Shown: positions 1 through 11,345 of the stretch, piece by piece
Layout: every line of letters starts with the position of its first letter
Position numbering within the stretch: position 1 is the first letter of the stretch
Virus record (IMG/VR): IMGVR_UViG_2529293038_000029
Reading direction: 5' to 3' (one strand)
DNA: 11,345 bases
Source of the DNA: a virus
Taxonomy: Duplodnaviria > Heunggongvirae > Uroviricota > Caudoviricetes
Program-made: the position numbers and the translations under genes
The notes under the pieces: generated by a model
Told to the model about the DNA's origin: nothing
Seen by the model: only the letters and a program-made list of their open reading frames with translations
The model's database searches: none

Positions 1-228
1 AGCGTGATCAGGTGTTTCATACTCCTGCCCAGTCTGTCCAGCTTCCAGACAACCAGCGTATCTCCTTCTGTATAGCGTTCTGATCAGTTTTTTCAATCCC
101 GGTCTGGCTGATTTCGTTCCGCTGATTTTATCTTCAAAAATCAGTTCACATCCTGCGCACTCCAGCGCGTTACGCTGCAATTCTGTATTCTGGTCATTTG
201 TTGATACGCGGACATAGCCAATAAGCAT
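1..228 (-). pseudogene. Inverted 5' fragment of a second serine-invertase gene copy; frameshifted and truncated by the window edge
   Basis: Minus-strand ATG at 228..226 corresponds to the invertase start at 2276. The sequence matches the first ~76 codons of the intact copy, but a 1-nt insertion near position 70 (tgtata versus tgata) breaks the frame. The copy continues beyond the left edge. Confidence 0.7.
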
Positions 229-284
229 GATGGATCCCCTGAATAAAAACCGGGGATGATGCCAGTTAGCCATAATCTCTGCAG

Positions 285-310
285 TTCTTGATTACGTTGG
301 TTTGGGAGAA
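285..310. other. Left hix/gix-like recombination site of the invertible segment
   Basis: Read on the minus strand it is TTCTCCCAAACC-AA-CGTAATCAAGAA: 12-bp half-sites around an AA core. The inner half is identical to the right site and resembles hix/gix half-sites (TTCTTGAAAACC). It encodes the VGLGE junction of the plus-strand tail-fibre frame. Confidence 0.6.
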
Positions 311-829
311 GGTGCTCCAGCTATTGGCGTTCCGTTCTTCTGGCCGTCCGCCGCAATGCCAAATACTGTAATCGACAGTTGGTCCAGTATGGTGTTTTTG
401 AAGTTCAACGGCGCGAAATTCTCTGCCACTGATTACCCTGTGCTGGCGAAAGTGTTTCCGGCGCTAGCATTACCTGACGCACGGGGTGATTTCATTCGTA
501 TCTGGGATGATGGGCGCGGGATTGATGTCGGACGTACCCTACTTTCAGGGCAATCACACACAATTATGGATCATGCACACAATATGGAATTGTGGACGGG
601 GGGCGGGCTTGCTGCAGGAAGTGCACGGGAAGGAGTAACCCCAGGAATACTGGCTACATATGGTGACGGGGGAATAGTTAAAACGGACGAACCCGGTCTT
701 AAGGTGCCTTCCTCACTACGAGCTCTTAGCTCTCGTAGTGTTAAACGTTATGGTGAAATTAGTGGACATGTAGGTACAGAAACCCGTCCACGAAATATTG
801 CATTTAACTTTCTGGTGAGGGCTAAATAA
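302..829 (+). CDS. Tail-fibre C-terminal variable (receptor-binding) cassette; no constant N-terminal part in frame upstream
   Basis: Carries the phage tail-collar pattern (PFFWP, YP.L...FP....LPD.RG.F.R..D.GRG.D..R..GS.Q.H.H.H) and ends ...PRNIAFNFLVRAK like other tail-fibre tips. The frame is open from 260 across the recombination site but is stopped by TGA at 257..259; there is no ATG, so the track start at 302 is a TTG. Its stop overlaps the next start (TAATG). Confidence 0.7.
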   Translation: MGEGAPAIGVPFFWPSAAMPNTVIDSWSSMVFLKFNGAKFSATDYPVLAKVFPALALPDARGDFIRIWDDGRGIDVGRTLLSGQSHTIMDHAHNMELWTGGGLAAGSAREGVTPGILATYGDGGIVKTDEPGLKVPSSLRALSSRSVKRYGEISGHVGTETRPRNIAFNFLVRAK

Positions 830-1855: not shown

Positions 1856-2248
1856 TTAACAGCCTAACGCTAAAAATGAAGCGCCGAGGCCAGGAGTACT
1901 GGCTCTGGATATAAATTTAACCGGGTCGGGACTAAAACCTGCACAGGCAATATAACCAACAGACCCGCTATCTGGTGTGTAGTCTTGTGAAACCAAAACA
2001 CGCAGACATCTGTTTGGAAATGCAATCGGGAAATGGGTTACTACATCCTGTGCAATGCCTGGTGCGCCGATTGAGCCCCACTGAAGAATAAAACCTGATG
2101 GTAATTTTTGATATCCAGTACCTGAAACAGAAAGCGTGAAGCTACCCATATCAGGTATCTGATTCGTCCCTGTCCCCACATTCTTTTTTGCCGCTTCTCC
2201 CAAACCAACGTTTAAGAAAATGCAGAGATTATGGCTAACTGGCATCAT
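1856..2248 (-). CDS. Alternate tail-fibre C-terminal variable cassette (Sv'-like), promoterless in this configuration
   Basis: Minus-strand ORF immediately upstream of Tfa', reading through the right recombination site (encodes NVGLGE). Its apparent N-terminus (to 2248) is antisense to the invertase leader and is probably not a real start. I do not recognise the domain. Confidence 0.55.
2195..2220. other. Right hix/gix-like recombination site of the invertible segment
   Basis: TTCTCCCAAACC-AA-CGTTTAAGAAAA: imperfect dyad, 12 + 2 + 12 bp with an AA core, close to hixL (TTCTTGAAAACC AA GGTTTTTGATAA). Lies just upstream of the invertase gene. Confidence 0.65.
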
Positions 2249-2502
2249 CCCCGGTTTTTATTCAGGGGATCCATCATGCTTATTGGCTATGTCCGCGTAT
2301 CAACAAATGACCAGAATACAGAATTGCAGCGTAACGCGCTGGAGTGCGCAGGATGTGAACTGATTTTTGAAGATAAAATCAGCGGAACGAAATCAGCCAG
2401 ACCGGGATTGAAAAAACTGATCAGAACGCTATCAGAAGGAGATACGCTGGTTGTCTGGAAGCTGGACAGACTGGGCAGAAGTATGAAACACCTGATCACG
2501 CT
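2195..2502. repeat. Right arm of the long inverted repeat (recombination site, invertase leader and first ~76 codons)
   Basis: Reverse-complement identity with 1..310 as described for the left arm. Confidence 0.85.
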
Positions 2503-2875
2503 TATTGAGGAATTGCGGGAAAAAGGTGTTAATTTCCGTAGTCTGACGGACAGCATTGACACATCAACACCCATGGGGCGTTTCTTTTTTCACGTCATGG
2601 GGGCTTTAGCCGAAATGGAACGTGAATTAATTGTAGAGCGTACACTGGCCGGGCTGGCAGCAGCACGCGCACAAGGACGCATTGGCGGACGTCGCCCGAA
2701 GTTGACAAAAGAACAACACGAGCAAATAGCGAGGCTGATTAAAAACGGTCATGACAGGAAACAACTGGCGATCATTTACGACATCGGCATATCGACGATT
2801 TATCGTTATCACCCTGTAGGCGATATACAGGCTGAAGAAACAACCAGGCAGACTCAGGAAAATGAAAACCGCTAA
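2276..2875 (+). CDS. Site-specific DNA invertase, serine recombinase of the Gin/Hin/Pin/Cin (Din) family
   Basis: MLIGYVRVSTNDQ N-terminus with the catalytic serine in the VRVSTNDQ motif, a resolvase-type catalytic domain (GDTLVVWKLDRLGRS) and a C-terminal helix-turn-helix (RKQLAIIYDIGISTIYRY). Start taken at the ATG at 2276, which has an AGGGGA Shine-Dalgarno; the track ORF starts upstream at 2231. Product is 199 aa. Confidence 0.9.
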   Translation: MLIGYVRVSTNDQNTELQRNALECAGCELIFEDKISGTKSARPGLKKLIRTLSEGDTLVVWKLDRLGRSMKHLITLIEELREKGVNFRSLTDSIDTSTPMGRFFFHVMGALAEMERELIVERTLAGLAAARAQGRIGGRRPKLTKEQHEQIARLIKNGHDRKQLAIIYDIGISTIYRYHPVGDIQAEETTRQTQENENR

Positions 2876-2901: not shown

Positions 2902-3396
2902 TCAAAACAGCCCTTTAACGGAGCTGGCCGCGCTGTTAAGGGATGATGTGACCTTATCTTTGAAGCCGGACAGCATATCACTGAACGATGAGGATTGCAG
3001 GCGCTCCCGCAAATCCTCATCACAGCGTTCAAGGGTCAGTGAAAATTCTATCTTTTTCGCCTTACCGTAGCGATCAAACTCGGAACGGGTCGTATTCGTT
3101 CCAGTCAGGACATACATGCCGTAAATCTGCCCGACGCCATCAATCAAAGGCCAGGGTCGTCCTGTATAAGCCTGCGTGGTCAGCAGCGACAGCGACACTT
3201 CGCCACCTGTAATTTCAGGATAAAGCACACCAGAAAGAACGATGCGATCATCACCTGCACCGATATACTGCCAGCTTGCTGAACGGTTAATGCGTTCATT
3301 TTTCACATGCCGCCAGCTTTTGTTTTGCTGTAACTGCTGATGCGGCAGCGTGCGCAGCTCAAAAACAAACATGCCGTAGATCATCATCATGGCCAT
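2902..3396 (-). CDS. U: Tail protein U (P2 gpU-like)
   Basis: 164 aa; the motif ...SWRH..NERINRSASWQY.G.....LSGV.YPEITGGE... matches P2 gpU. Immediately downstream of the tape measure gene. Confidence 0.8.
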   Translation of the reverse strand: MAMMMIYGMFVFELRTLPHQQLQQNKSWRHVKNERINRSASWQYIGAGDDRIVLSGVLYPEITGGEVSLSLLTTQAYTGRPWPLIDGVGQIYGMYVLTGTNTTRSEFDRYGKAKKIEFSLTLERCDEDLRERLQSSSFSDMLSGFKDKVTSSLNSAASSVKGLF

Positions 3397-3402
3397 GACT
3401 CC

Positions 3403-6246
3403 TCAATCTTTATCGTAAAAACTGCCACGCCCGGCACGGGCGCGCCGTTCCATTTCTGCCCTGACCATTTCACCGACCAGTTTCGCCAGTTCGCGGGGAT
3501 TCTGCGTAACAACGTTATGCAGATGAACATGAATTTCACCACCAAATTCGGAGGCAACAGGCTCCCGGTTACGGGAAGTTACAGGAACTGATGCCACTGG
3601 AGATCGTATAGCCTCCGCCACCGGGCGGGAGCTGGCCGCAACAACAGTGACCAGCGCCGGAGGCAGCGGAGCCGGAACCACAGGTGTGATATTAATTGCG
3701 GGGGCAGGCTTACTGACCTGCGCAATCTTCCGCTCCTGCCACTCCCCACGAACAGCAAGTGCCCGGGGCAGGTTTTTAAAGACAATATCGCCGGGGCCAA
3801 TGCGTTTTTTCGTCTCCTCAACCAGCTTACCTGTGTTATCAGCAATTTTGCTGAGTCTGCGCAGCGTACCGGTATTGCTGTCTGTGAGCGGTTTATTGTC
3901 TTTGGGGTTATCACCTCCGGTGCCATTGCCATTTTCCACAGGCTTCGGCGGATTGATTTTCGCCAGGTCCCCCTGAAGCAAGGCAACCTTGTCCTGAAGA
4001 ATGGCCGCACGCTGTGCGTCTTCGATTTTCTTGCGCGCCCTTTCCGCTTCATCCGGAAGCACACCAAGCTTTTCAAGTATCCACGCCAGCGTATCCAGCA
4101 ACATTTTTGCAGGTGTCAGAACAAGTTGTAACGCACCGCCAAGAACGTTACCGAATATCTCGCCAGCACTGGTACATTTATCCAGAGTTTCCTTGCTGGA
4201 CTCCATCGGTGACAGCAGCGATTTAAACCAGTTAAACACCTGGCTTATCCCGCTTCCGATTGCGTCAAAAACAGGACCAAACCGTTCAAAGGTTTCGCGC
4301 AACGGGGCCAGCCGCTCCATAATCCCACTGAACACCCCGGCAAAAAATGCCCTGATTGGGTCCCAGTATTTCCAGATAAGAATGGCAGCTCCGGCAAGCG
4401 CAGCCACGATAAGACCAACCGGACTGAACAGCGCCCCGATAGCGCCCCCCAGTAACGAAACGGAACCCGTCACCATTCCCCATAGTGCTGGCAGAACCCT
4501 GACAGCATTCATTGATCCGGTCAGGAGGGAAAAACCAAGACGCAGTTTTGCCAGCGGGCCAGCAAGCACACCAATAGCCAGCGACAACGAGCCAACCGTT
4601 GCAGTCATTGCCAGCAGTGCACCGCCTGCAATCAGTAGCTGGCGCGTCAGTGCGGGATGGGCCTGCGCCAGCGCCGTCACCTTTGATACCACACGCGTGA
4701 GCCACTGCGTGACAGAACGCAGCGGACCGTCAATCAGATCTGCAATGCGGATGCGCAACCCTTCCCATGCACTGCTGAGTGATTTCAGATCGCCGTCAAG
4801 GTTGTTGGCCATAACCTTTGCCGTGCGTTCAGCCTCACCGCGCGCGCCTTCAAGTTCTTTTCTCAGTTTGGGTAAGGAGCCGTCACCTGCCGCATCAACG
4901 AGGGCCATAAATGATGTGAAAGCCTCTTCTCCGGCAATGTCCTTAAAGAACGATACCCGGTCAACTTCCCCGTATTTGCGGGTAGCTTTATAAAGGTCAG
5001 CCAGCACATCCTCCATCGGGCGCATTTTGCCCCCGGCATCCGAGACAGACACGCCAAGCTCTTTCAGCGCCTCTGCTGCCGCCTTTGGCGGTGATGCCAG
5101 ACGAGCCAGGCTGGCACGCATTGCCGTACCAGCATCACTCCCCCTGATACCCATATTCGCCAGCACGCCCGCCATCGCTGCGGCCTGCTCCAGCGATATT
5201 CCCAGCTTACCCGCCACCGGACCTGCATATTTCATGGTTTCACCCAGTGCGCGAAGGTCAGTGTTGGTACGGGTAAACGCTGCGGTGAGTGTGTCGCCGA
5301 CCCGGTCCATCTGGTCAGCAGAAAGACCGAACTGCGTCAGAATATTTGAGCCAATATCCGCCGTCTCACCGAGGTCCATACCGCCAGCCGTTGCCATGCT
5401 CAGTACGCCAGGGAGCGCAGCCTGAATGGCCTGTGGTGTGAAGCCAGCCATTGCAAGAAATGCCTGCCCACTGGCGGCATCGCCTGCGGTGAACTGCGTT
5501 TCAGAGCCAAGTTTTAACGCCTGCTCACGCAGCGCCTTAAACTGCGGGCTGTTTTTGTCGATTCGCGTCAGTGCCTGAACGCGGGACATCTCTTTCCCGA
5601 ACCCGATCGCAGGCTGCAAAAAACGCCCGGCAGCATAGCCGCCCGCCGCTGCCGCACCAATTGCCAGCGCACCACCTGTTTTCAGTTTTCCCGCTGTTTC
5701 CTGCGCGCGCGAATACCGCTCACGCGCCTGCGTTACACGCGCAAGCGCCTGCCGTTCGCGTTCAAGCTGGTTGTTGTACTGTTCGGTGCGTCTGATGGCC
5801 TGCTGGATGGTGTTATCGCTGCCTGTCAGGGAAATGCCGTGGCGTTTCAGCTCTCCGCCAATCTCCCGCATTTTCTGAATTTCCCGTGTGCGCGATTCAT
5901 TCAGGCGTTCAAGCCGGGTGCTTAACTGCTGCATCAGCTTTTGTTGTTTTTCGCTGAGCACTGTACCCGTGCGTTGTAACTGATTAAGGGCGTTAAGCTG
6001 GCGTCGTGCTTTCACGATACCCGCATCCGCTTTACTGACAGCGTCGCGGGCGCGCTCAAATGAACGCGCCTGACGCTCGAGATTTTTGATCGCCCCCTGC
6101 GTTCGCTGGATGGAGTCACCAAACTGCCCCATCAGGCGGCGGGCGTTTTCGGCAGGCCGGGTCAGCCTGTCAACGGCGCTGAAAGCGACCCGGATATCAA
6201 GAGTCTTCATTGTCTGCATTCCCGCTGCGAAGTGCCGCCCGCTCAC
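3403..6246 (-). CDS. T: Tail tape measure protein (P2 gpT-like)
   Basis: 947 aa with a coiled-coil N-terminus, a central glycine/alanine-rich hydrophobic region and tape-measure core motifs. Sits between E/E' and U. The start is uncertain: GTG at 6246, or ATG at 6219 or 6210. Confidence 0.85.
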   Translation of the reverse strand: MSGRHFAAGMQTMKTLDIRVAFSAVDRLTRPAENARRLMGQFGDSIQRTQGAIKNLERQARSFERARDAVSKADAGIVKARRQLNALNQLQRTGTVLSEKQQKLMQQLSTRLERLNESRTREIQKMREIGGELKRHGISLTGSDNTIQQAIRRTEQYNNQLERERQALARVTQARERYSRAQETAGKLKTGGALAIGAAAAGGYAAGRFLQPAIGFGKEMSRVQALTRIDKNSPQFKALREQALKLGSETQFTAGDAASGQAFLAMAGFTPQAIQAALPGVLSMATAGGMDLGETADIGSNILTQFGLSADQMDRVGDTLTAAFTRTNTDLRALGETMKYAGPVAGKLGISLEQAAAMAGVLANMGIRGSDAGTAMRASLARLASPPKAAAEALKELGVSVSDAGGKMRPMEDVLADLYKATRKYGEVDRVSFFKDIAGEEAFTSFMALVDAAGDGSLPKLRKELEGARGEAERTAKVMANNLDGDLKSLSSAWEGLRIRIADLIDGPLRSVTQWLTRVVSKVTALAQAHPALTRQLLIAGGALLAMTATVGSLSLAIGVLAGPLAKLRLGFSLLTGSMNAVRVLPALWGMVTGSVSLLGGAIGALFSPVGLIVAALAGAAILIWKYWDPIRAFFAGVFSGIMERLAPLRETFERFGPVFDAIGSGISQVFNWFKSLLSPMESSKETLDKCTSAGEIFGNVLGGALQLVLTPAKMLLDTLAWILEKLGVLPDEAERARKKIEDAQRAAILQDKVALLQGDLAKINPPKPVENGNGTGGDNPKDNKPLTDSNTGTLRRLSKIADNTGKLVEETKKRIGPGDIVFKNLPRALAVRGEWQERKIAQVSKPAPAINITPVVPAPLPPALVTVVAASSRPVAEAIRSPVASVPVTSRNREPVASEFGGEIHVHLHNVVTQNPRELAKLVGEMVRAEMERRARAGRGSFYDKD

Positions 6247-6726
6247 GCCAGCTAACCACTTCGCCGGGCGTCATCATGAAGATTTCGGCGGGCGACCAGT
6301 TAAAAATAACGGCAATATCTGCCACAAAGTCTTCTATGTGCTCAAAGCACACAACCGTGATCAGGCTTCCGTCGCCTGTTCGTTCTTCCCGCCAGAGTCC
6401 GCACCGCTCAAAAAATTTACGGCAACCACACATAACTGAATAAAGTCACGGGATGCCATTTTTTTGATCGTCACTTCATCCAGTCGCGGTGATGTCACGC
6501 GTGACAGCAGCGTAAACATGGATTCCGCTTTCAGATTCAGCACATCAGACAGCGACAAATCTCGCAGAGATCCAGCCTGCTCAATAGCCCCGGTGATCTC
6601 CACATACGTGATTTTTTCGCCGCCTCGCTCAATTGGTTGGGTAAGTTTTACGCCACGCTCACTGGTTTCTTTCACAGTGTCAGCAACTACCGTGTTTTCG
6701 GTATCGATGTTTTTCGTCTCTTTCAT
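6197..6726 (-). CDS. E+E' fusion chaperone, made by a programmed -1 ribosomal frameshift
   Basis: The -1 frame after the slippery site stays open to the stop at 6197..6199 and overlaps the start of T, as in P2 E/E'. Predicted fusion is about 176 aa. Confidence 0.6.
6361..6726 (-). CDS. E: Tail assembly chaperone E (P2 gpE-like), zero-frame product
   Basis: 121-aa ORF between FII and T, with a GGAG Shine-Dalgarno upstream of the ATG at 6726. Contains the slippery heptamer T_TTT_TTG spanning codons 104-106. Confidence 0.7.
   Translation of the reverse strand: MKETKNIDTENTVVADTVKETSERGVKLTQPIERGGEKITYVEITGAIEQAGSLRDLSLSDVLNLKAESMFTLLSRVTSPRLDEVTIKKMASRDFIQLCVVAVNFLSGADSGGKNEQATEA
6409..6415 (-). 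other. Programmed -1 frameshift slippery heptamer TTTTTTG (E to E+E')
   Basis: Plus strand reads CAAAAAA at 6409..6415, which is T TTT TTG on the coding strand in the correct register (AAT TTT TTG). Identical to the P2 E/E' shift site. Confidence 0.7.
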
Positions 6727-6780
6727 CAGGAAACTCCTTTCAGTCAGAGGCGACGCACTGCGCCGCCTGCATATTACTTA

Positions 6781-7293
6781 TCAGCCAAGCCCAAGCGCGG
6801 AACGGATGCGATCGGGCACAATGTCCTTGCCGTCCTTCCGGTAAATGAAGTTCAGCAGGTCAATCTCCCACAGCGGGCGATCGTTAACGCTCAGCTTGTA
6901 GTAGGTGTTTTTAATGGCGTAAGAGTGTGATGTGGCTTCGCCCTGTTTGGCTTCCCCCATATCAATTTCCGTCACACGTCCGCGCATTTCGACTTCATAC
7001 AGGTCGCTTTCTGCATCGGTGTAGTATTCACCCGCAAAACGCAGCAGCGTGCCGTCAATCGTGCCGCCATACTTAAGGAACAGCTCACGAACTGCGCCCC
7101 CCATGACAAAGCTCGCATCAAGCGCGGAGTCGTCCAGACCGAGATCAATACTTACCGCACCCATCATGCCACCACCCCGGTAGCTGTCGGTTTTGCGCGT
7201 CAGCTTAGGCAGAGTGACGGACGTCACCTTACCCACTTCGTTTTCACCATCCACAAACAGCGTAAAAAAGCGAAGATGTTTTGGCACAGCCAT
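6781..7293 (-). CDS. FII: Major tail tube protein (P2 gpFII-like)
   Basis: 170 aa; motifs VTLPKLTRK..YRG.GM.G, DLGLDD, RFAG.Y, MRGR..EID.GE.KQGE match P2 FII. GGGAGG Shine-Dalgarno; the start overlaps the FI stop (TGATG). Confidence 0.88.
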   Translation of the reverse strand: MAVPKHLRFFTLFVDGENEVGKVTSVTLPKLTRKTDSYRGGGMMGAVSIDLGLDDSALDASFVMGGAVRELFLKYGGTIDGTLLRFAGEYYTDAESDLYEVEMRGRVTEIDMGEAKQGEATSHSYAIKNTYYKLSVNDRPLWEIDLLNFIYRKDGKDIVPDRIRSALGLG

Positions 7294-8477
7294 CAGGCAC
7301 CTCCCAGCACCGCAAATGCGGGTTCAAAGTATTCATCAGTAAACGTCTGGTAAAGCTCCATATCTTCCAGCGGGGGAACAGGCGTATATTTGTAGCGAAT
7401 ACGCACACGCCCCTGACGTAAATCCGTGGTGCTGTTATCCACCACGTCATACCAGCACTCCGCGCCAATCAGTTTCCCGGCAGTAACCAGTGAATCCAGT
7501 TTTGCCCTGATGGCACTGATAACATCCTTCACGTTCGCAGGCGTCAGTGGACTGTCGATGGTTTCAAACTGCGCTTCCGCAATTGAATCAGCCAACACCT
7601 GTGCGGTTCGGGTATACACCTCAAAGATGTAGGCGTTCGTTTCCGGTGTGCGGTTGCCCCAGAAGCGGAACCCGTTGCGACGAATAATGGTCGTGATTTC
7701 TTTGTTGTTGAGGCTGTTGGCATCACTGTCTTCGGCCTGCAACGACCAGAACACATGCCTGGACATCCCCAGCACATTTTTAACCGGAACGTTGGACAGC
7801 GATTTGTGCCAGCCCTGTTCATGGTCAATGTACGCACGGAGGCCGCACGCATAGGCAGGCGCGGGGAACGTTTCGTTTTTGCCACTTTTGGGGTTGTAGG
7901 CGATGAAGTCCGGCCATAAGAGCATCACCTCACGTTCGTTGAATTTCTGGCGGTAGGTAATCGCCTCAGCCATCGTGTTACAGCCGTGACATGAGGCATA
8001 CACAAACGCGCGCAGTTTACCTGCAATCACGCACAGGGATTTTGTTACAGCCTCCGTGTCCAGCTCCGGCGCGGCCAGAATACGCGGACGGTATCCGATG
8101 CTTTCATCCTGCTCTGCAACAAGCAGCGCATACATCCCCGTATAGCTGCCGTCATCCTCAGAACCACCGATAACCAGTTGATCCTGCGTCTTTCCGTCTT
8201 CTTCTTTGTGTTCAGCCACGCGAACGACGATCACCTTTGTGCTCACCTGGTCTGCAATGGCCTTAAGCGCACGATAAAGCGTCCCCGTTGTCCCGCATTT
8301 TCCCAGCACGTCATTGACGCGGGTCAGCAGTGTGGGCTTGTTCAGCGGGAACAGCTTCGCGTCCGCATCATCCGCCGTTGCCACGATACCGATAACGCTG
8401 GAATCAACATCGTTAATCGCTGTTACCAGGTCGGTATTTTCCGTAACACGGGCACCATGAAAACGAGTTTCACTCAT
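7293..8477 (-). CDS. FI: Contractile tail sheath protein (P2 gpFI-like)
   Basis: 394 aa; motifs DADA..FPLNKP, KLRAF, YRQ.F..RE.M..WPDF, DHEQGWHKSLSNV, FRFWGNRT, YTRTAQV.AD, YKYTPVPPLE match P2 FI. Confidence 0.88.
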   Translation of the reverse strand: MSETRFHGARVTENTDLVTAINDVDSSVIGIVATADDADAKLFPLNKPTLLTRVNDVLGKCGTTGTLYRALKAIADQVSTKVIVVRVAEHKEEDGKTQDQLVIGGSEDDGSYTGMYALLVAEQDESIGYRPRILAAPELDTEAVTKSLCVIAGKLRAFVYASCHGCNTMAEAITYRQKFNEREVMLLWPDFIAYNPKSGKNETFPAPAYACGLRAYIDHEQGWHKSLSNVPVKNVLGMSRHVFWSLQAEDSDANSLNNKEITTIIRRNGFRFWGNRTPETNAYIFEVYTRTAQVLADSIAEAQFETIDSPLTPANVKDVISAIRAKLDSLVTAGKLIGAECWYDVVDNSTTDLRQGRVRIRYKYTPVPPLEDMELYQTFTDEYFEPAFAVLGGA

Positions 8478-8634
8478 AGCTTCAGCCCCTTGTATCCGTT
8501 AAATGATTCGGCAACAATCATCACCCACCACGCGCGTAATCTCACCCCTGCGCCGTTCTCCCGACCCGGCGACAACAAAAAGCAGTAACCCCCTCCGCAC
8601 GCACATGCGACCATGCCGCACAGGGAGGGAACAG

Positions 8635-9744
8635 ATGACCGACACCACCATGCAATTGCTCAGTCAGGGCACAGACCCCGTGAAAATGCCGGATTTTGAT
8701 ATTCTTGCGGAGGGTAAAACGCTGTCAGGCGTGGCAGAGCGCCTGATGAGCCTGTCACTGACCGACAACCGGGGATTTGAGGCGGACCAGCTCACCATCA
8801 CGCTGGATGATGCGGATGGTCAGTTGCAGCTACCGCCACGGGGCGCGCGCCTGACGGTTCTCATTGGCTGGAAAGGAGAACCGCTGACAGAAAAAGGCAC
8901 TTACATTGTTGATGAAATCGCTCACGAAGGACCGCCGGACAGGCTGACTGTTTCAGCCAGAAGCGCAGATTTTCGGGATGAATTTAACGTTAAACGTGAG
9001 GTGTCCTGGCATGATGTGACCCTTGAGCGTGTGGTATCCGCCATCGCTCATCGGTATGGTCTGAAACCACAAATCAGCGAAATGCTGATGGATATCGAAA
9101 TCGACCACGCCGACCAGACCGAAGAAAGCGACATGTCCTTCCTTACGCGCATGGCGGAAATGCTGGGCGCAATCACCACGGTAAAAAGCGGTAATCTGTT
9201 ATTCATCATGCCAGGCGGTGGCGTGAACGCACAGGGCCAGCCGTTGCCCTCGTTCGCCATCACGCGCAGCAGTGGCGATCGCCATCAGTTCCGCATTGCT
9301 GACCGCGAAGCGTATACGGGGGTACGCGCTTACTGGCTTGATCTTAATTACGGGAAAAAGAAAAAAGTCAGCGTGAAACGCCGCAAACCGCCAAAACCCA
9401 AAAAGGAGAAAAGCAGCAGCCGTGAAGGTGATTATATGGAAGGCGCAGAAGGCAATGTGTTTGTGTTACGCAAGACTTATCAGAACGAACAGGCAGCAAG
9501 ACGCGCAGCGGCGGCAAAGTGGCAGCAGCTACAACGCGGAGCCGCAGCGTTCTCCATCACACTGGCACGTGGACGCGCAGAACTCTACCCCGAAATGCAT
9601 GGCACGGTAACAGGATTTAAAAGCGAAATTGATAATCAGGACTGGATTATTGCAAAAGCCGAGCACACCATTGATAACAGTGGCTTTACCACGCAGCTTG
9701 AGCTTGAAGCCAAAATCCCGGAATGGATAGCAGAAACAGAGTAA
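8635..9744 (+). CDS. D: Tail protein D (P2 gpD, late control gene D family)
   Basis: About 369 aa with Phage_GPD-like N-terminal motifs (DFDILAEGKTLSG, LSLTDNRGFEADQLTITLDD). Start placed at the ATG at 8635 because of the strong GGGAGGG Shine-Dalgarno; the track ORF begins upstream at 8503. Transcribed divergently from FI. Confidence 0.8.
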   Translation: MTDTTMQLLSQGTDPVKMPDFDILAEGKTLSGVAERLMSLSLTDNRGFEADQLTITLDDADGQLQLPPRGARLTVLIGWKGEPLTEKGTYIVDEIAHEGPPDRLTVSARSADFRDEFNVKREVSWHDVTLERVVSAIAHRYGLKPQISEMLMDIEIDHADQTEESDMSFLTRMAEMLGAITTVKSGNLLFIMPGGGVNAQGQPLPSFAITRSSGDRHQFRIADREAYTGVRAYWLDLNYGKKKKVSVKRRKPPKPKKEKSSSREGDYMEGAEGNVFVLRKTYQNEQAARRAAAAKWQQLQRGAAAFSITLARGRAELYPEMHGTVTGFKSEIDNQDWIIAKAEHTIDNSGFTTQLELEAKIPEWIAETE

Positions 9745-9938
9745 ACAACTTAGATGCATTAGCCCTGACATTTGCTAACGCGCTTACAGCAAGAATCATA
9801 ACCAATCTGACAGCCTACCCGGTGTCAAAATCAGAAGAGCCTTACATTAGAATATGTTAATTTGTAGCAAACAAATTTACACACAAATGATTACTGCTGA
9901 AATAGCCCCCATAAATACCATGTCAAAGGATCCATGTT

Positions 9939-10604
9939 ATGAATATGCAAATTTTTATCGCACCAGCAGCCACAGTTGCTGCAGTCTGCCTTGCTGCATA
10001 TTTTGCTTTACGAAATGAACGTAAAAAGAAAGCACTTGAGATTAGAACAACTCAACTAGATCGAATATCAGAGCTAGTAAACCGAGCATCTACCAATTTG
10101 ATGCAATATACAGGTACTCTTGCCTCTATACTGGAAGCGCACGCCAAAGATAATTATCTACCGAACAAAAAATTTGACATTAATGTAATTAGCAAATGGA
10201 AAGATTGCCTCGATGAGAGTGAGGTCTGGGCGATTGATAGACAGCAACTAAGAACATGTCAGCACAGTCTGGAGTTTCATCGTGAAAAAGAATGGGCTGA
10301 ATGGAAAAAAATAATTCCACCATTACTTGATAAAATTGACCAATTTTTTCTCATATCTAAGCCAGGGCAACCTGTTACGTTTATAAATGGCCAAAACAAA
10401 ACAGCTGATGAACTACTTGTTTTCTCAAGATATTTGAGAAAACAAACAGCAGAAATTGAATCAGTACGTCAGCTGTTACTTTCTCAAATGAGAGAGGAAT
10501 TCATCGAGTTAACTAGCTTTGAACCTGTCACAATGTTTAGCTTATTTAAATCAATAAAGAAAAATGTCATGCAATTTTTCTGTATCAGTGCTCTTAAAAA
10601 TTGA
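9939..10604 (+). CDS. Hypothetical membrane-anchored protein: one N-terminal transmembrane helix plus about 190 aa soluble domain; AT-rich cargo gene
   Basis: 221-aa ORF with AAGGA Shine-Dalgarno 8 nt upstream. Hydrophobic N-terminus (IFIAPAATVAAVCLAAYFAL) followed by a K/E-rich domain I do not recognise. Visibly lower GC than the flanking phage genes. Confidence 0.6.
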   Translation: MNMQIFIAPAATVAAVCLAAYFALRNERKKKALEIRTTQLDRISELVNRASTNLMQYTGTLASILEAHAKDNYLPNKKFDINVISKWKDCLDESEVWAIDRQQLRTCQHSLEFHREKEWAEWKKIIPPLLDKIDQFFLISKPGQPVTFINGQNKTADELLVFSRYLRKQTAEIESVRQLLLSQMREEFIELTSFEPVTMFSLFKSIKKNVMQFFCISALKN

Positions 10605-10619
10605 CGCTCTGTTGCAAGC

Positions 10620-10650
10620 AACCCCAGTGTTAAACTGGGGTTATTCTTGC
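10620..10650 (+). terminator. Intrinsic terminator downstream of the AT-rich ORF
   Basis: 9-bp perfect stem AACCCCAGT-gttaa-ACTGGGGTT followed by a T-rich tract (TATTCTTG). Confidence 0.55.
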
Positions 10651-10753
10651 TAAGAGACCTTTCTACGGCATCAGTAAACAAAACGAACTATCAGTTGGAG
10701 TCTGAGCAAGTTCAGCCTAAACTAGCGACAGCACTACGTTAAGGGAGGTCGCT

Positions 10754-11014
10754 ATGTTCCGTTGTCCGCTTTGTGGCGCATCTGCCCGTATCCGCACCAG
10801 TCGTCCGGAAAATGATTCAAACACCGTGCGGCAAAAGTATTACCAGTGTAACAACCTGGAATGCGGCGTATGCTTCTCAACACTGGAAGCTTTCCATAAA
10901 TTCACATCGAAACACGCCTCCGGCATCCACTCTTCAGAAGATATCCCGTGGCATGAGCTGCCAGCTTCACACAGGGGAAACAATCAGATGAGCTTGCCTT
11001 TACCTCAGAATTAA
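10754..11014 (+). CDS. ogr: Ogr/Delta-family zinc-finger late transcription activator
   Basis: MFRCPLCGASARIRTSR...YYQCNNLECGVCFSTLE matches P2 Ogr (MFHCPLCQHAAHARTSR...YHQCQNVNC..F.T.E), with a Cys-x2-Cys ... Cys-x4-Cys zinc-binding pattern. GGGAGG Shine-Dalgarno. 86 aa, longer than P2 Ogr at the C-terminus. Confidence 0.88.
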   Translation: MFRCPLCGASARIRTSRPENDSNTVRQKYYQCNNLECGVCFSTLEAFHKFTSKHASGIHSSEDIPWHELPASHRGNNQMSLPLPQN

Positions 11015-11074
11015 CAGGCAGAATTGCCGGAGTAACAAAAAAGCGATAGATTACGCGCGGGTGCCTTTCGGCTG

Positions 11075-11287
11075 ATGGTCGGAGGGAATACCCGAAGGCC
11101 AGATGTGGAAAGGCCCCGGAAAACATCTCTGTTTAACCGAGGCCCTAACCGCATTACCTTGACAAGTGAAAGGTTAGCGCCTCTCCGGAAAAGGAGCAAG
11201 TGCTATGTCGCAAAAATCGCTTACGGCCATCACGTTCTGCGTGACGGCAATCCTCATCATCTGGATGTTGCACGGTTCGCTGTGTGA
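11075..11287 (+). CDS. mok-like overlapping reading frame of a hok-type locus (tentative)
   Basis: 70-aa ORF in a different frame, starting about 130 nt upstream of the hok-like gene and overlapping it, as mok does in hok/sok loci. Assigned by position and length only. Confidence 0.35.
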   Translation: MVGGNTRRPDVERPRKTSLFNRGPNRITLTSERLAPLRKRSKCYVAKIAYGHHVLRDGNPHHLDVARFAV

Positions 11288-11345
11288 AATACGGATGAGC
11301 TTCTGGGGAGCGGAGTTTGCGGCGTTCTTACAGTGTAAGCAGTAA
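11205..11345 (+). CDS. hok: Hok/Gef-family type I toxin (small membrane peptide)
   Basis: 46 aa, MSQKSLTAITFCVTAILIIWMLHGSLCEIRMSFWGAEFAAFLQCKQ: an N-terminal transmembrane segment then the family signature SLCEIR ... E.AAF (compare Hok [22 protein letters not shown] and HokA ...AAFLACK). AGGAG Shine-Dalgarno 7 nt upstream. The stop codon is the last 3 nt of the window. Confidence 0.75.
   Translation: MSQKSLTAITFCVTAILIIWMLHGSLCEIRMSFWGAEFAAFLQCKQ

Follow-up and report, generated by a model that had tools for sequence, protein, structure and literature searches.

The window analysed here is a stretch of 11,345 nucleotides (nt) of tailed-phage DNA (Caudoviricetes; IMG/VR record IMGVR_UViG_2529293038_000029), and the feature under study is gene E together with E', a -1 frame extension that overlaps it, on the minus strand of a block of P2-type tail genes (Table 1). 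Gene E begins at ATG 6726..6724, with the sequence AAAGGAG at 6740..6734, 7 nt before this start, and ends at TGA 6363..6361. The -1 frame is free of stop codons from 6445 to TGA 6199..6197, a run of 82 codons of which 54 lie past the gene E stop. Conceptual fusion of the two frames gives a protein of 176 amino acids (aa), E+E', and the end of its coding sequence (CDS) overlaps the beginning of gene T by 14 nt. Genes FII and T flank E on the same strand, as they do the gpE/gpE+E' pair of phage P2.

A slippery heptamer, T_TTT_TTG, lies in register within the E/E' overlap: base 6415 is the third position of an AAT codon, and the zero frame reads GTA AAT TTT TTG AGC. It is part of a decamer, A_AAT_TTT_TTG (6418..6409), that holds two overlapping in-register heptamers. 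An earlier note on this DNA had proposed that T_TTT_TTG stands here in the slippage register, that the -1 frame is open to 6197 and runs into the start of T, and that the arrangement is the tail-chaperone frameshift of P2 E/E'. The first two points agree with the coordinates above, and the third is borne out by the position between FII and T and by homology.

E' matches Pfam PF06528 (Phage_P2_GpE) with 45.3 bits (E 6e-12; gathering cut-off 23) and phrog_1756 at 1e-39, and tblastn found 47.6% identity to the E' parts of P2 and Wphi, whose coding sequences are annotated as 'gpE+E'; -1 translational frameshift'. Gene E matches phrog_103 'tail protein' (3e-35). BLASTP of the fusion against P2 gpE+E' gave one continuous alignment of 150 aa (31% identity, E 9e-26), in which E residues 23-105 align with P2 gpE and the slip-site Phe-Leu of both proteins occupies the same column. 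A multiple alignment of twelve family members has common motifs along its entire length, including LxxPIxRG, AGxLRGxSL and LLPRxTxPxL. A sequence search of the PDB with the fusion returned nothing meaningful (best E 0.86). The locus also has the layout of the lambda class, in which two overlapping open reading frames (ORFs) between the major tail and tape measure genes are linked by a conserved, predicted programmed frameshift. Sequence comparison thus supports the gene pair as a member of the P2 E/E+E' family with a tail-chaperone frameshift of the lambda G/GT type.

The arrangement is conserved far beyond the window. Among closely related IMG/VR loci, counting those that could be parsed, 79 of 79 keep the slip site in the same register and 78 have a full-length -1 ORF; the register is therefore independent of this assembly, which answers the reservation in the earlier note that it might not survive a corrected one. 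The remaining locus has an E' truncated to 56 codons. In every one of 14 other Peduoviridae lineages examined, an in-register X_XXY_YYZ heptamer occurs at the same aligned position. It is T_TTT_TTG in P2, Wphi, 186, a Klebsiella element, SEN4, RSA1, Yersinia 201.16, Acidovorax Alfacinha1 and Burkholderia PhiBP82.2, T_TTT_TTT in a Zymomonas plasmid-prophage and a Vibrio phage, and G_GGA_AAG in a Mannheimia phage. A survey of 80 diverse IMG/VR relatives, which are contigs rather than independent lineages and form a sample biased towards the query, placed a heptamer 30-32 codons before the motif ADIAxIFxW in 76. TTTTTTG (T6G) was present in 47 of the surveyed loci, 8 of which also have A_AAT_TTT and 6 also C_CCT_TTT; C_CCT_TTC alone was found in 14, A_AAT_TTT alone in 10, T_TTT_TTA in 4 and T_TTT_TTC in 1, and the 4 loci in which no heptamer was found are either damaged or were missed by the parser.

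Comparison with a sister lineage of Xuanwuvirus (P884B11, 520873, 503458 and Citrobacter phiSM; about 86% nt identity, same geometry) was used to see which frame is constrained. The E' of this lineage is identical to that of the window at 63 of 71 residues. Over the 16 codons ending at the slip site (37/48 nt identical), frame 0 keeps 14 of 16 residues and frame -1 keeps 6; over the 16 codons past it (36/48 nt identical), frame 0 keeps 8 and frame -1 keeps 12. In the part that encodes E' only, 8 of the 11 substitutions fall at third positions of the E' frame. By this comparison the constraint changes from frame 0 to frame -1 exactly at the slip site, as frameshifting predicts, and the -1 frame is under purifying selection. 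Damaged copies are rare, and are decayed or mis-sequenced: in one locus of an IMG/VR pattern scan (among L100-L219) an indel joins the E' frame to the tape measure frame, and another (L221) has an early stop within E'.

Taken by itself, the string TTTTTTG shows no enrichment in the window (7 copies over both strands, 4.2 expected). When the codons of E were shuffled 200,000 times, an in-register TTTTTTG landed inside the 27 codons over which the -1 frame is open in 0.2% of shuffles, and any in-register XXXYYYZ did so in 9%. What decides the case is homology and conservation; the heptamer count does not. Two other runs in gene E were considered as slip sites and rejected: the A7 run at 6465..6459 does not stand in register and its -1 frame stops before E', and -1 frame stops likewise intervene between the A6 run near 6616 and E'.

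The region 6100..6800 has 99.3-99.9% nt identity to the Escherichia phages 500465-2, PhiR44_2 and P88, which with Chuche are placed in the genus Xuanwuvirus of the family Peduoviridae. P88 has E and E' amino-acid sequences and a decamer A_AAT_TTT_TTG identical to those of the window, with the same gene order, and the tail block is common in E. coli chromosomes. P88 is an inducible, plaque-forming phage (PMC5285337). Because of this identity to Xuanwuvirus phages, the feature can be taken as the already known E/E+E' frameshift of a P88-like E. coli prophage: real, intact and ordinary. The mechanism of tail-chaperone frameshifting has been textbook knowledge since 2002-2004. The exact 121-aa E occurs on at least 1000 public contigs, where it is called 'phage tail protein' or 'Phage tail E family'; exact copies of the 51-aa ORF for E' ('GpE family phage tail protein') are present on roughly 1000 contigs or more. 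The records of E and E' that were examined carry two separate proteins, whereas the predicted biology is E and a 176-aa E+E'; the finding is thus of value for annotation.

It is highly probable that E and E+E' are made from a single start codon by a programmed -1 frameshift. Ribosomes would initiate at ATG 6726 and translate E, and the majority would stop at the gene E stop codon to release the 121-aa chaperone. A minority would slip back by 1 nt on the U-rich decamer A_AAU_UUU_UUG and read the -1 frame as far as its TGA, yielding the 176-aa E+E'. Slippage would seemingly occur on the heptamer alone, with neither a downstream RNA structure nor an upstream Shine-Dalgarno-like stimulator. From homology with P2 and analogy with lambda G/GT we infer that E and E+E' function at a fixed ratio, the N-terminal part common to both coating the tape measure protein T and the rarer E' domain recruiting the tube and sheath for assembly, and neither product would be present in the virion. 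One study of P2 describes a -1 shift at TTTTTTG that gives a 91-aa E and a 142-aa E+E' and takes place without a downstream structure (PMC3091744), and another paper puts the frameshift efficiency of P2-like phages at 2- to 3-fold that of lambda G/GT (PMC5009743).

Several results weigh against this interpretation. E scores 17.2 bits against Pfam PF10109 (Phage_TAC_7), below the cut-off of 25, and the NCBIfam search gave no model for E or for the fusion; there is none for P2 E either. In P88 and in RefSeq, E' is annotated as a separate 51-aa (156-nt) CDS from GTG 6352 and is not joined to E. Exact look-up of the window fusion in its two junction versions (Phe-Phe and Phe-Leu) found neither in the protein collection, from which both versions of the P2 fusion are also absent. 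Folds of 49-101 nt downstream of the slip site are no better than shuffled sequences (z -0.43, +0.92 and +0.39), which is likewise true of the downstream folds of P2 and of the sister lineage. The 22 nt before the slip site show no Shine-Dalgarno-like stimulator; the AAGGTG found upstream in P2, 186 and the Yersinia phage is not shared by the window. With no structure and no Shine-Dalgarno-like sequence, the efficiency would rest on the heptamer alone, and UUG in the A site is a poorer shifter than UUU or UUC in E. coli reporters (PMC4066793). An Rfam search of the entire window at gathering thresholds gave no hits.

Other routes to E', or to none, were weighed against the frameshift. E' might be made alone by independent initiation, at GTG 6352 or at a -1 frame ATG at 6433, as the stand-alone 51-aa CDS annotated by PGAP and in phage records implies; ATG 6433 does open a -1 frame ORF of 78 codons, and the sister lineage has GTG there. 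Neither start, however, is preceded by a purine-rich Shine-Dalgarno sequence (...CACGGTT-GTG and ...TTCAGTT-ATG). The -1 frame is better conserved already between the slip site and GTG 6352 and poorly conserved upstream of the slip site, around ATG 6433, and a change of constraint at the slip site is not predicted by initiation at either codon. In P2 and 186 the -1 frame opens just 11 codons before the E stop, with no start there, and PMC3931495 reports that P2 E' has no ribosome binding site, overlaps T and is made by frameshifting. Judged on these sequence comparisons, independent initiation of E' is unlikely, and very much so.

Transcriptional slippage would reach the same frame by another means, RNA polymerase adding one U on the T6 run to give E+E' mRNAs with the junction VNFFER. 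The homopolymer is there, and one extra U is equivalent in frame to a -1 shift. Six residues is nevertheless short for appreciable slippage by bacterial RNA polymerase, programmed cases having about 8-9 or more, and relatives with T4 (the sister lineage) or CCCTTTC (Klebsiella) retain E' under selection, so slippage on the run cannot be the shared mechanism; we give it a slightly smaller chance still than independent initiation. The remaining alternative, a chance heptamer or a decayed, functionless gene whose ORF was split by an indel or an assembly error, could draw on the lack of enrichment of the heptamer and on the 9% of shuffles noted above. Against it stand a two-ORF geometry that is identical in 79 independent contigs and across the family, purifying selection on the -1 frame and the same arrangement in viable phages (P88, phiSM). 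Family-wide conservation and selection on the -1 frame effectively refute this alternative, and its probability is negligible.

A rival of a different kind keeps the mechanism and moves the site. The operative heptamer could be the upstream A_AAU_UUU rather than U_UUU_UUG, tRNA-Asn and tRNA-Phe re-pairing from AAU_UUU to AAA_UUU; we regard this as possible, if rather doubtful. The sister lineage reads GTA AAT TTT ATG, with TTTTATG in place of TTTTTTG; A_AAT_TTT survives there and E' is fully conserved, and one member, the phage phiSM, is reported to be fully functional (PMC6456863). The two variants are about equally frequent in the IMG/VR pattern scan (T variant in at least 48 loci, A variant in at least 43, among the matches listed), and one A-variant locus among the matches listed has a P88-type background. 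Klebsiella Reipivirus relatives carry C_CCT_TTC at the position of the upstream heptamer and no T6G. In E. coli reporter assays UUU and UUC in the A site shift better than UUG and UUA, and the motifs R_RR.U_UU.Y and H_HH.U_UU.Y are classed as efficient (PMC4066793). On the other side, T6G suffices elsewhere with no X_XXT_TTT upstream, in most Peduoviridae including P2; both heptamers are kept in all 79 P88-type loci, which gives no discrimination within this lineage, and both could contribute.

The two sites can be distinguished in the protein. In the classical two-tRNA slip at T_TTT_TTG the TTG is decoded first as Leu and the junction is VNFLERCGLW; a shift at A_AAT_TTT, a slip in the P site only, or transcriptional slippage gives VNFFERCGLW. 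The junction peptide VNFFERCGLW named in the earlier note is thus right for the upstream heptamer and wrong for a two-tRNA slip at the one it had singled out. Its statement that the exact TTTTTTG is conserved likewise stands for the window, the P88-type loci, P2 and others, and fails in the sister lineage, half of the genus, and in other relatives that have C_CCT_TTC, T_TTT_TTA/C/T or G_GGA_AAG. As judged from these alignments, the slip position is conserved to within one codon, and the heptamer itself is replaceable because the sister lineage has only A_AAT_TTT and the Klebsiella relatives C_CCT_TTC. Either heptamer, or both, may be used in this phage, and from the double site two forms of the fusion could arise, one with Phe and one with Leu at its junction.

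Tentatively, A_AAU_UUU may even be the site that matters in P88-type phages, slip sites having turned over within the genus without loss of function. If so, turnover would have left the double A_AAT_TTT_TTG in one lineage, A_AAT_TTT alone in its sister and C_CCT_TTC in the Klebsiella relatives; P2 has T_TTT_TTG alone, one codon downstream of the A_AAT_TTT position. Different or overlapping heptamers at one position in close phages may interest those who model frameshifting; understanding of the system would be unchanged.

The programmed frameshift proposed here resembles that of P2 in most respects. In both phages the gene pair lies between FII and T, the -1 extension overlaps the start of T, T_TTT_TTG stands in the same register and alignment column, and no downstream RNA structure is found. 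The proteins are longer in the window (E 121 aa against 91, E+E' 176 aa against 142), E having an extra N-terminal segment and a 10-residue insert past the slip site, and the zero-frame tail past the slip site has 16 codons (17 with the TTG of the heptamer) in place of 8. Where the window has its second heptamer, P2 has C_GGT_TTT, which is not slippery, and the upstream AAGGTG of P2 is absent. P2 carries FI-FII-E-T-U-D-ogr on one strand with a single FETUD unit, whereas in the window FI-FII-E-T-U is opposite to D and ogr. The FETUD tail operon of P2 with gpE and gpE+E' was reportedly described by Christie et al. in 2002 (as cited in PMC3091744 and PMC3931495), and the general class of tail assembly chaperones of the lambda gpG/gpGT type is credited to Xu et al. 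in 2004.

The likeness to lambda gpG/gpGT is one of logic. The two are treated here as analogous, and PMC3931495 states that the tail chaperones of P2 and lambda have no sequence similarity. According to PMC5009743, chaperones of the lambda type are required in a fixed ratio and do not occur in virions. Lambda is a siphovirus, whereas the window encodes a contractile tail. Lambda slips on G_GGA_AAG, and among the relatives seen here this heptamer is used by the Mannheimia phage only.

Table 1. Features of the E/E' locus and the adjoining tail genes, in order along the minus strand of the window
Feature	Position	Strand	Basis or remark
Gene FI (tail sheath), first gene of the block	7293..8477	-	Pfam PF04984, PF22671, PF17482
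Gene FII (tail tube), directly upstream of E	6781..7293	-	Pfam PF04985, 6e-47
GC-rich 9-base-pair hairpin, FII-E intergenic	6748..6768	-	fold -19 kcal/mol, z = -1.6
Gene E (putative tail assembly chaperone, zero-frame product, 121 aa)	6361..6726	-	ORF, translation
Upstream overlapping heptamer A_AAT_TTT, in register	6412..6418	-	only heptamer left in sister Xuanwuvirus lineage
Slippery heptamer T_TTT_TTG, P2 type, X_XXY_YYZ register	6409..6415	-	offset 311 from ATG
E' (-1 frame extension, 71 codons + TGA after shift)	6197..6412	-	translation, Pfam, PHROGs
Dual-coding stretch (frame 0, C-terminal tail of E; frame -1, start of E')	6361..6411	-	
Gene T (tape measure protein, 935 aa, ATG 6210)	3403..6210	-	Pfam PF10145, 3.7e-58
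Gene U (tail protein), downstream of T	2902..3396	-	Pfam PF06995 Phage_P2_GpU, 1e-38

The tail block from FI to U occupies 2902..8477 on the minus strand, and the stretch from 8503 to 11345 carries D (PF05954), ogr (PF04606) and, starting at 11205, a hok/MokW-like gene, all of them plus-strand genes that diverge from FI. Invertase and tail-fibre genes are situated beyond U. The orientation of the FI-U block relative to D is the same in P88 and in E. coli prophages, and in Xuanwuvirus it is inverted with respect to P2. FI, FII, E, T, U and D are intact, with lengths that agree with those of P88, and both the E'/T overlap and the 2808-nt T CDS are the same in the P88 and RefSeq annotations. The slip site supports the gene calls of the tail block and, together with the identity to P88, argues that FI-FII-E-T-U is intact.

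The hairpin between FII and E has the stems AGGCGGCGC-AGU-GCGUCGCCU. A 'tI partial terminator' is annotated at this location in phage 186, and the equivalent place in P2 forms a strong hairpin. In the window there is no T-run after the hairpin, and a terminator scan gave no call. It may attenuate transcription and so keep the output of E, T and U below that of the sheath and tube.

The left end of the window is unusual. Positions 1..286 repeat, inverted and all but perfectly, the segment 2218..2502 (215 nt at 100% and 70 nt at 99%), which takes in the first ~270 nt of a DNA invertase gene (2231..2875; Resolvase and HTH_7 domains). Inverted repeats of 18 nt, ACGTTGGTTTGGGAGAAG, at 294..311 and 2194..2211 have the look of invertase crossover sites. 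Between them lies an invertible tail-fibre segment, both strands of which carry fibre C-termini and assembly genes. In E. coli O111 strain 12A it is the tail fibre gene's constant part that forms the left flank. The appearance of the window's left end is that of a fold-back made in assembly at the invertible segment, or else of a genuine rearrangement in which the fibre gene lost its constant part, and for this reason the condition of the prophage as a whole cannot be assessed. The suggestion in the earlier note that the tail module is, or recently was, functional is reasonable given an E/E' identical to that of P88 and the intact tail genes, and is tempered by this odd left end.

Between D and ogr there is an ORF of 221 aa (9939..10604, plus strand) with an N-terminal hydrophobic segment, within a stretch of low GC content (9601..10800; 37-41% GC, with 50-58% around it). 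It has no match in Pfam, PHROGs or PADLOC. It is a hypothetical protein in E. coli JNEC-KY180 and is not annotated in P88, in which D and hok are ~0.5 kilobases apart; in E. coli O111 strain 12A, ogr follows directly after D. The ORF resembles a moron, a variable cargo gene.

For phiSM the genome does not fit the morphology that has been reported. This Citrobacter phage (Shae_phiSM; L006 in our set) has P2-type sheath, tube, E/E' and tape measure genes and is classified in the Peduoviridae, whereas it was named in a paper that gives it long, non-contractile tails and assigns it to the Siphoviridae (PMC6456863).

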